DNA of 3,546 bases, from the sequence record PP430139.1; one strand, 5' to 3'. Shown piece by piece: positions 1,341-3,392 of this stretch. How positions within the stretch are numbered: the first letter of the stretch is position 1; the number at the start of each line of letters is the position of its first letter. The notes beneath the pieces are model-generated. The model did no database searches. It was given only the letters and a program-made list of their open reading frames with translations, and was not told the DNA's origin. The stretch is from Enterobacteria phage FrBlood. The translations under genes and the position numbers were made by a program.

Positions 1341-1721
1341 TTTACTCAGTTCGTTCTCGTCGACAATGGCGGAACTGGCGACGTGACTGTCGCACCAAGC
1401 AACTTCGCTAACGGGGTCGCTGAATGGATTAGCTCTAACTCCCGCTCGCAGGCTTACAAAGTAACCTGCAGCGTTCGTCAGAGCTCTGCGCAGAACCGCA
1501 AGTACACCATTAAGGTCGAGGTGCCGAAAGTGGCAACTCAGACCGTAGGTGGCGTACAGCTCCCTGTAGCCGCATGGCGTTCGTACTTAAATATGGAATT
1601 AACTATTCCTATTTTCGCAACGAACGACGATTGCGCGCTTATTGTTAAGGCGATGCAAGGTCTCCTGAAAGATGGAAACCCGATCCCCTCAGCAATCGCA
1701 GCAAACTCCGGAATCTACTAA
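1329..1721 (+). CDS. cp: Coat (capsid) protein, which is also the translational repressor of the replicase gene
   Basis: 130-codon ORF (MASNFTQFVLVDNGGTGDV...AIAANSGIY), 129 aa after Met removal, as in MS2 coat protein. Conserved RNA-binding and structural residues in mature numbering: T45, C46, T59, K61, W82, Y85, N87, C101. Stop TAA 1719-1721 is followed immediately by TAG 1722-1724. Confidence 0.98.
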   Translation: MASNFTQFVLVDNGGTGDVTVAPSNFANGVAEWISSNSRSQAYKVTCSVRQSSAQNRKYTIKVEVPKVATQTVGGVQLPVAAWRSYLNMELTIPIFATNDDCALIVKAMQGLLKDGNPIPSAIAANSGIY

Positions 1722-1899
1722 TAGATTCCGGCCATTCCAACATGAGGATTACCCATGTCGAAGACAACAAAGAAGTTCAACTCTTTATGTATTGATCTTC
1801 CTCGCGATCTTTCTCTCGAAATTTACCAATCAATTGCTTCTGTCGCTACTGGAAGCGGTAATCCGCACAGTAGAGACTTTACAGCAATTGCTTACCTAA
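1672..1899 (+). CDS. lys: Lysis protein L, a small membrane protein encoded in the +1 frame across the coat/replicase junction
   Basis: 75-aa ORF (METRSPQQSQQTPESTNRFRPFQHEDYPCRRQQRSSTLYVLIFLAIFLSKFTNQLLLSLLEAVIRTVETLQQLLT). Basic N-terminal half, hydrophobic C-terminal segment with the LS-dipeptide region (LLLSLL). Starts inside the coat gene and ends inside the replicase gene, exactly the MS2 arrangement; same length as MS2 L. Confidence 0.93.
   Translation: METRSPQQSQQTPESTNRFRPFQHEDYPCRRQQRSSTLYVLIFLAIFLSKFTNQLLLSLLEAVIRTVETLQQLLT
1740..1758 (+). promoter_or_regulatory. Coat-protein-binding translational operator hairpin (TR / MS2 hairpin) covering the replicase SD and start codon
   Basis: Seen in sequence: ACAUGAGGAUUACCCAUGU, i.e. 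stem ACAUG/CAUGU with a bulged purine and loop AUUA. This is the canonical wild-type MS2 operator (U at loop position -5). The replicase AUG (1755-1757) lies in the 3' arm and the SD GAGGA in the 5' arm. Confidence 0.95.
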
Positions 1900-3392
1900 G
1901 GGACGAGTTGCTTACTAAGCACCCGTCTCTAGGAAATGGTAATGACGAGGCGACCCGCCGGGCTTTAGCTATCGCTAAGCTCCGGGAGGCGAATGAACGG
2001 TGTGGCCAGATTAACAGAGAAGGTTTCTTACACGACAAATCCTTGTCGTGGGATCCGGATGTTTTACAAACCAGCATCCGTAGCCTTATTGGCAACCTTC
2101 TCTCTGGCTACCGTTCGTCGTTGTTTGGGCAATGCACGTTCTCCAACGGTGCCTCAATGGGGCACAAGTTGCAGGATGCAGCGCCTTACAAGAAGTTCGC
2201 TGAACAAGCAACCGTTACCCCCCGCGCTCTGAGAGCGGCACTACTGGTCCGAGACCAGTGCGTGCCGTGGATCAGACACGCGGTCCGCTATAACGAGTCA
2301 TATAAATTTAGGCTCGTTGTAGGGAACGGAGTGTTCACAGTTCCGAAGAATAATAAAATAGATCGGGCTGCCTGTAAGGAGCCCGATATGAATATGTACC
2401 TCCAGAAAGGAGTTGGCGCCTTTATAAGACGTCGCCTCAAGTCTGTCGGTATAGACCTGAATGATCAAACGATCAACCAGCGTCTGGCTCAGCAGGGTAG
2501 CGTAGATGGCTCATTAGCTACGATAGATTTATCGTCGGCTTCTGACTCCATCTCCGATCGCCTGGTGTGGAGTTTCCTCCCACCTGAGCTATATTCATAT
2601 CTCGATCGTATCCGCTCCCACTACGGGATCGTAGATGGTGAGACGATACGATGGGAACTATTTTCCACAATGGGGAATGGGTTTACTTTTGAACTAGAGT
2701 CCATGATATTTTGGGCGATAGTAAAAGCTACCCAGATCCATTTTGGTAACGCCGGAACCATAGGCATCTACGGGGACGATATTATATGTCCCAGTGAGAT
2801 TGCACCCCGTGTGCTAGAGGCACTTGCCTACTACGGTTTTAAACCGAATCTTCGTAAAACGTTCGTGTCAGGGCTCTTTCGTGAGAGCTGTGGCGCGCAC
2901 TTTTACCGTGGTGTCGATGTCAAACCGTTTTACATCAAGAAGCCAGTTGACAATCTCTTCTCCCTTATGCTGATCATGAATCGGCTTAGGGGGTGGGGAG
3001 TTGTCGGAGGTATGTCAGATCCGCGCCTTTATAAGGTTTGGGTACGACTGTCCTCCCTGGTTCCATCGATGTTCTTCGGTGGGACGGACCTTGCCGCCGA
3101 CTACTACGTAGTTAGCCCCCCAAACGCCGTCTCAGTTTATACTAAGACTGCATACGGGAAGCTACTCGCGGATGCCCGTACCTCGGGTTTCCGTCTTGCT
3201 CGTATCGCGAAAGAGCGAAAGCACTTTAGCGAAAAGCATGACAGTGGTCGCTACATCGCATGGTTCCATACTGGAGGTGAGATCACCGACAGTATGAAGT
3301 CCGCTGGCGTACGCGTAATGCGTACTTCGGAGTGGCTGACGCCGGTTCCCACATTCCCTCAGGAATGTGGGCCAGCGAGCTCTCCTCGGTAG
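1755..3392 (+). CDS. rep: RNA-dependent RNA polymerase (replicase beta subunit)
   Basis: 545-aa ORF (MSKTTKKFNSLCIDL...ECGPASSPR), stop TAG 3390-3392. Contains the RdRp motif C YGDD (GTIGIYGDDIICP; codons at nt 2769-2780). Same length as, and by recollection highly similar to, MS2 replicase. Confidence 0.98.
   Translation: MSKTTKKFNSLCIDLPRDLSLEIYQSIASVATGSGNPHSRDFTAIAYLRDELLTKHPSLGNGNDEATRRALAIAKLREANERCGQINREGFLHDKSLSWDPDVLQTSIRSLIGNLLSGYRSSLFGQCTFSNGASMGHKLQDAAPYKKFAEQATVTPRALRAALLVRDQCVPWIRHAVRYNESYKFRLVVGNGVFTVPKNNKIDRAACKEPDMNMYLQKGVGAFIRRRLKSVGIDLNDQTINQRLAQQGSVDGSLATIDLSSASDSISDRLVWSFLPPELYSYLDRIRSHYGIVDGETIRWELFSTMGNGFTFELESMIFWAIVKATQIHFGNAGTIGIYGDDIICPSEIAPRVLEALAYYGFKPNLRKTFVSGLFRESCGAHFYRGVDVKPFYIKKPVDNLFSLMLIMNRLRGWGVVGGMSDPRLYKVWVRLSSLVPSMFFGGTDLAADYYVVSPPNAVSVYTKTAYGKLLADARTSGFRLARIAKERKHFSEKHDSGRYIAWFHTGGEITDSMKSAGVRVMRTSEWLTPVPTFPQECGPASSPR

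Follow-up and report, generated by a model that had tools for sequence, protein, structure and literature searches.

Unequal constraint along a +1-frame open reading frame that is very probably the lysis gene L of an MS2-like RNA phage

The window, i.e., the whole stretch of 3546 bases that was analyzed, carries at 1672-1899 an open reading frame (ORF) that is almost certainly the lysis gene L of an MS2-like levivirus, with lytic activity and translational coupling ascribed to it by homology with MS2. L has been a textbook example of an overlapping gene since 1979-1982, and the one found here is itself already known, as the single lysis gene of an MS2-like RNA phage whose protein was previously deposited; its value as a discovery is small, as the exact protein is present in GenBank three times already. 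The gene nevertheless shows clearly how unequally constraint can be spread over a single overlapping gene. Its C-terminal 47 codons freeze the synonymous sites of the replicase and make up the best-conserved part of the coding genome, and its N-terminal residues appear to drift as passengers, which fits the experimental dispensability of the N-terminal half for lysis.

ORF listing and Pfam searches matched four ORFs to families across the window, and the features that frame L are the following:

124-1305: maturation protein gene (Pfam PF03863).
1329-1721, + strand: coat protein gene (Pfam PF01819, E=1e-67), whose last 50 nt are shared with the N-terminus of L.
1672-1899, + strand: L (lysis, Sgl) gene, with an ATG start, 75 codons and a TAA stop at 1897-1899.
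1719-1724, + strand: tandem coat stops UAA UAG (TAA at 1719-1721, TAG at 1722-1724).
1755-3392, + strand: replicase beta-subunit gene (Pfam PF03431, E=1.2e-213), whose first 145 nt encode L residues 29-75.

By alignment, the window appears to be a nearly complete MS2-like Emesvirus genome that lacks only its extreme termini, because the alignment begins at base 7 of related records and ends 17 bases short of the MS2 3' end. Megablast against deposited phage genomes returned 300 records, every one of them an MS2-type Emesvirus, with nucleotide identities to the window of 99.4% for FrHenna (PP430140; 20 differing positions genome-wide), 94.9% for both DL16 and FrSaffron, and 92.1% for MS2. The values for FrHenna, FrSaffron and MS2 agree with those published for phage FrBlood (PMC12169576, S1 Fig), and the window is probably FrBlood or else a very close sibling of FrHenna. 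The start of the maturation gene (124-126) separates these phages as well, being ATG in the window, the DL16/FrHenna lineage and R17 and GTG in reference MS2 and ST4; the two bases preceding it are TC and CT in the ATG and GTG groups, respectively.

The geometry of the L frame is as the earlier note had described it. The 75-codon ORF starts inside the coat gene, crosses the operator region and ends 145 nt into the replicase gene (1899-1755+1), all coordinates being correct; the overlap with the coat gene is 50 nt. Both coat (1329-1721) and replicase (1755-3392) are in frame 0 (start mod 3) and L is in frame 1, so that the +1 relationship also holds with respect to both neighbors. The tandem coat stops are present in the sequence at the positions given there, and the L frame reads through them as ..ACU AAU AGA.. 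(T16 N17 R18). They are kept in 12 of 12 MS2-like genomes, and fr has a single UAA.

The identification as a lysis gene, also advanced in the earlier note, finds support from three sides. Pfam family PF11125 (Phage_MS2_lysis) matches the product, METRSPQQSQQTPESTNRFRPFQHEDYPCRRQQRSSTLYVLIFLAIFLSKFTNQLLLSLLEAVIRTVETLQQLLT (ORF translation, 75 aa), with 131.2 bits and E=1.3e-38 against a curated cut-off of 25 bits, residues 22-75 covering profile positions 1-54 of 54. The annotated L proteins of FrHenna, DL16 and DL54 are each 100% identical to this product. Furthermore, the L coding sequences of 12 related records have the same coat/L/replicase layout, and most of them are labeled "lysis protein"; in NC_001417 the label is "hypothetical protein", with the note "L-protein". 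The match to the profile, the place in the genome, the domain layout, the start hairpin, the spacing and the operator together put the ORF in the MS2 L family; the last four of these are described below.

The domain layout is apparent from two features in the second half of the protein:

1783-1851, + strand: predicted transmembrane hydrophobic segment, residues 38-60, LYVLIFLAIFLSKFTNQLLLSLL.
1813-1818, + strand: Leu48-Ser49 "LS" motif (CTC TCG), domain 3 of L-like Sgl proteins (PMC10229422).

In L and L-like Sgl proteins, a basic N-terminus is followed by a hydrophobic domain, then by the LS motif and finally by a C-terminus that varies (Chamakura et al. 2017, per PMC10229422), and each of these parts can be recognized here. 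Residues 1-36 hold six K+R and four D+E, for a net charge of +2, consistent with the positively charged domain 1; the hydrophobic stretch LYVLIFLAIF followed by L48-S49 represents domains 2 and 3; and past residue 23 only positions 61, 68 and 71 vary among MS2-like isolates, in line with the variable domain 4. The transmembrane prediction suggested in the earlier note gave a hydrophobic segment at residues 38-60, with 19-residue Kyte-Doolittle windows of 1.71-1.74 (maximum 1.74), identical to those of MS2.

For MS2 L, it has been reported that the protein is lytic when expressed from a plasmid, that the C-terminal ~35 residues are enough for lysis, that the soluble N-terminal domain binds DnaJ yet is dispensable for lysis, that oligomerization is driven by the transmembrane domain, and that lesions begin at the outer membrane; according to the same literature, the ultimate molecular target is still unknown (PMC10688784, PMC10229422). 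By homology with MS2, the product encoded in the window would likewise be a 75-residue membrane protein, with a polar and mildly basic N-terminal domain (residues 1-36) that may interact with DnaJ, and with a hydrophobic C-terminal part (about residues 37-75, LS at 48-49) that would insert in the membrane, oligomerize and cause envelope lesions or autolysis. FrHenna, FrSaffron and FrBlood all plaque on E. coli MG1655+F (PMC12169576, Fig 1C data), and, as the L protein of FrHenna is identical, a phage carrying this exact protein does lyse cells.

The expression of L is probably bound up with RNA structure. Folding of 1620-1780 predicted three hairpins, with z=-4.35 for the whole stretch, and the elements of this region are the following:

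1641-1696, + strand: predicted lysis-start hairpin, in both MFE and centroid folds, -16.7 kcal/mol, with a modest local z of -2.0.
1666-1668, + strand: L-frame stop UGA in the loop of the lysis-start hairpin, with the L AUG following after 3 nt.
1708-1731, + strand: coat-stop hairpin, whose perfect stem of 10 bp is capped by a CUAA loop containing the coat UAA, -14.2 kcal/mol, z=-6.4.
1723-1758, + strand: replicase translational operator (coat-protein binding hairpin), Rfam RF02359 with 60.6 bits and E=4.7e-13 (gathering score 40), stem at 1740-1758.

In the predicted fold, the lysis-start hairpin encloses the L AUG (1672-1674) at the junction of loop and stem, with its G paired, and an SD-like GG (1659-1660) is paired too. 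The same fold is predicted for MS2, with one compensatory pair (1652-1685), and the hairpin, as modeled, appears to be the regulatory one described by Schmidt et al. 1987 (cited in PMC12548453). The coat-stop hairpin encodes L residues 13-20. The operator contains the replicase AUG (1755) and encodes L residues ~23-29; its stem (1740-1758) is invariant in 12 MS2-like genomes, and fr differs from it in the loop only (T to A at 1749).

Two features associated with coupling to coat termination (Berkhout/Schmidt 1987) are found here, namely a hairpin that sequesters the start, by predicted fold, and a spacing of -50, the distance from the L start at 1672 to the last base of the UAA at 1721 being a 50-nt overlap equal to that of MS2. 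In wild-type MS2 the coat-lysis spacing is also -50 nt, and a 2025 review that draws on Berkhout et al. 1987 and on Schmidt et al. states that this coat-lysis pair fits activation through the unfolding of the lysis-start hairpin as ribosomes terminate at the coat stop (PMC12548453). By homology with MS2, L in the window would be translationally coupled to coat termination. Because its start sits in hairpin 1641-1696, ribosomes would have no independent access to L, and those that translate the coat gene and terminate at the stops 50 nt downstream would switch it on at a low rate, either by melting the hairpin for new ribosomes or by drifting back and reinitiating. Such coupling would tie lysis to the accumulated translation of the coat protein.

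The earlier note had stated that L translation in MS2 depends on ribosomes that terminate at the coat stop and reinitiate upstream; the dependence on coat termination agrees with the literature, and the upstream reinitiation is one of two published readings (PMC12548453). It would have the terminating ribosome itself scan back 50 nt and start again at the L AUG, with no new loading on the melted hairpin. Backward scanning and reinitiation have indeed been demonstrated for the coat-lysis pair of phage fr (-38) and for MS2 constructs in which the coat stop was moved nearer; however, when wild-type MS2, at -50, is offered two start codons, it initiates from each of them, in agreement with unfolding of the RNA (PMC12548453), and the window retains the -50 spacing. 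Reinitiation by the same ribosome is thus a possible route for the phage described here, and a less probable one than the opening of the hairpin to new ribosomes.

A second alternative is the route of Kastelein et al. 1982 (cited in PMC5009743 and PMC10229422), in which a few ribosomes shift +1 within the coat gene, terminate at UGA 1666-1668 and start again at AUG 1672, 3 nt further on, so that termination at the coat stop would not be the main trigger. This shift-then-reinitiate model is not the favored account, and we regard it as improbable. A stop in the L frame 3 nt ahead of the AUG, UGA or UAA, does occur in 12 of 12 MS2-like sequences, but it consists of coat codon 113 (CUG/CUA, Leu) and the next A, and its conservation needs no special explanation.

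Whichever way ribosomes reach L, its reading frame leaves a mark on the variation of the genome. The length of the ORF was rejected as evidence: with a +1-frame stop density of 0.063 outside L, about 0.56 stop-free runs of at least 75 codons are expected, and further stop-free runs of 85-90 codons exist in the window. L stands above chance because of its homology (the Pfam match at E=1.3e-38) and its conservation. The earlier note had named loss of the ORF in close relatives that still form plaques as a refutation, and the frame proved to be open in 13 of the 13 relatives compared, including fr at ~81% nucleotide identity. Two other + strand ORFs, at 74-334 (86 aa) and 1993-2232 (79 aa), were considered as extra overlapping genes and rejected as chance ORFs, since stops break both of them in MS2, R17, fr and other relatives.

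Residues 29-75 of L are under dual-coding constraint. Among 12 MS2-like genomes, 2 of 48 third-codon positions of the replicase are variable in the L overlap versus 289 of 497 outside it (Fisher p=3e-14). In bins of 16 codons the counts are 0/16, 0/16 and 2/16 within the overlap and then 11/16 directly past the L stop, so that the suppression of third-position variation in the replicase stops exactly at the end of L. Within the coding genome, variability is lowest over the ~100 nt at 1740-1838, which have one variable site, compared with 17% genome-wide, and the hydrophobic segment of L (residues 38-60) falls in this stretch. A few substitutions do occur, at 1803, 1860 and 1872; they are silent in L and alter the replicase protein, and L is for this reason the more constrained frame in the overlap. 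RNA structure at the replicase start could, besides L coding, contribute to the low variability of 1755-1899.

That the ORF is nothing but a chance open frame, with the conservation of 1755-1899 due to RNA structure or to constraints on the replicase N-terminus alone, is exceedingly improbable, as the expected frequency of such runs and the longer ones found elsewhere are outweighed by the PF11125 match, by a frame open in all relatives including fr when the control ORFs are broken, by the end of suppression exactly at the L stop, and by substitutions that spare L at the expense of the replicase.

When 11 complete MS2-like genomes are compared, the longest run of invariant positions lies outside the lysis gene, at 2157-2230 (74 nt) in the replicase; no run within the L overlap is as long. 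Its end falls precisely at the stop of the +1-frame ORF 1993-2232, which is not conserved, and an ATG inside the run, at 2175, would encode just 18 aa. Local folding of 2140-2250 detected no exceptional structure (z=-0.88).

The overlap with the coat gene behaves differently from that with the replicase. Here each coat third position is a second position of L, and coat third positions are not reduced in variability (6 of 16 variable in the L overlap vs 43 of 114 elsewhere); all six coat-synonymous polymorphisms in 1672-1721 alter L. The protein alignment proposed in the earlier note gave 70 of 75 residues identical to reference MS2 L (NC_001417), with five substitutions, F5S, A14E, R19F, K23Q and T68E. 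It bears out the difference of RFRPFQ versus RRRPFK near the N-terminus that had been given there; the hydrophobic C-terminal half, which had been called conserved, is so except for one residue, T68E in the tail.

The N-terminal differences can be traced to their nucleotides. F5S (1685) and A14E (1712) are synonymous in the coat gene, and R19F (1726-1727) and K23Q (1738) fall within the intercistronic spacer. Pair 1652-1685 of the lysis-start hairpin is G-C in the lineage of the window and A-U in MS2, R17 and fr (7 vs 3 distinct sequences), and pair 1712-1727 is A-U in the window; MS2 and R17 have C-G there, and isolate LT898437 has G-C. Because three of the changes (F5S, A14E and R19F) sit on covarying RNA pairs, residues 5, 14 and 19 are dictated by the upkeep of two hairpins. 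On these comparisons, the N-terminal differences of L are by-products of coat-synonymous or intercistronic changes and of hairpin covariation, not adaptive novelties, and the dependence of residues 5, 14 and 19 on the hairpins agrees with weak selection at the protein level on the N-terminal half of L.

Some further variants were noted in the same region and in the tail. The A-to-C change at 1738, which is the source of K23Q, removes the terminal U-A of a 7-bp complementarity between UGAAUGG (1421-1427) and CCAUUCA (1732-1738) and leaves 6 bp; this complementarity is presumably the long-range Min Jou interaction, which keeps translation of the replicase repressed. Isolate L008 (LT898437), at 1676-1680, starts L with GUG in place of AUG and has D115S in its coat protein, and it also bears the third pair type, G-C, at the covarying position of the coat-stop hairpin. 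At 1872-1874, the change from GAC (MS2) to AGA produces L T68E and replicase D40R together and is common to the whole DL16-like lineage; residue 68 belongs to the variable tail of L.

As the N-terminal domain has fewer basic residues than that of MS2 L, DnaJ dependence or timing might differ. A stronger proposal is that in the DL16/FrHenna lineage the three lost net positive charges in the DnaJ-binding domain (A14E, R19F, K23Q), together with a predicted stability that is ~2 kcal/mol greater for both hairpins, lead to a different lysis schedule, DnaJ dependence or weaker activation of DnaJ-linked defence (e.g., bNACHT25). This proposal is doubtful, and a substantial shift of lysis timing or DnaJ dependence from the differences in charge and hairpins is unlikely; if it were true, the L of DL16/FrHenna would be a natural allele for dissecting the "dispensable" half of the protein.

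The closest known systems are FrHenna (PP430140, WZB35600.1), DL16 (EF108464, ABO33462.1) and DL54 (JQ966308, AFN39799.1), in which L has the same position and frame and differs in nucleotides alone. Inside L, the sole difference between FrHenna and the window is at 1860, where the window has A and FrHenna G; the A is silent in L (V63) and corresponds to D36N in the replicase relative to FrHenna. R17 shares the A at this position.

MS2 L (NC_001417, YP_009640126.1) has the same length, start and stop positions, and the same 50-nt coat and 145-nt replicase overlaps, and MS2 shares with the window the tandem coat stops, the operator hairpin, the hydrophobic segment of L and LS48-49. The two differ in the net charge of the N-terminal domain, which is +2 in the window and +5 in MS2 (8 K+R, 3 D+E), and in the stop ahead of the L AUG, UGA in the window and UAA in MS2. 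The predicted lysis-start hairpin is slightly stabler in the window than in MS2 (-14.5 kcal/mol), and the perfect stem of the coat-stop hairpin contrasts with an A.C mismatch in MS2 (-12.0 kcal/mol).

Phage fr is more distant. Its L (X15031, 71 aa) is a homologue in the same frame that keeps the hydrophobic domain at the C-terminus and the LS motif, and its expression is coupled to the coat stop. The annotated start, a non-AUG codon, lies 12 nt more downstream (-38), the coat gene of fr has a single stop, and substitutions in L are more numerous. The L-like Sgl proteins of other Fiersviridae (PRR1, Hgal1, etc.) share the four-part layout with the protein of the window (PMC10229422), whereas they have no sequence similarity to L and occupy other genome locations. 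The L of the window is by sequence a true homologue of MS2 L and not merely an L-like protein.
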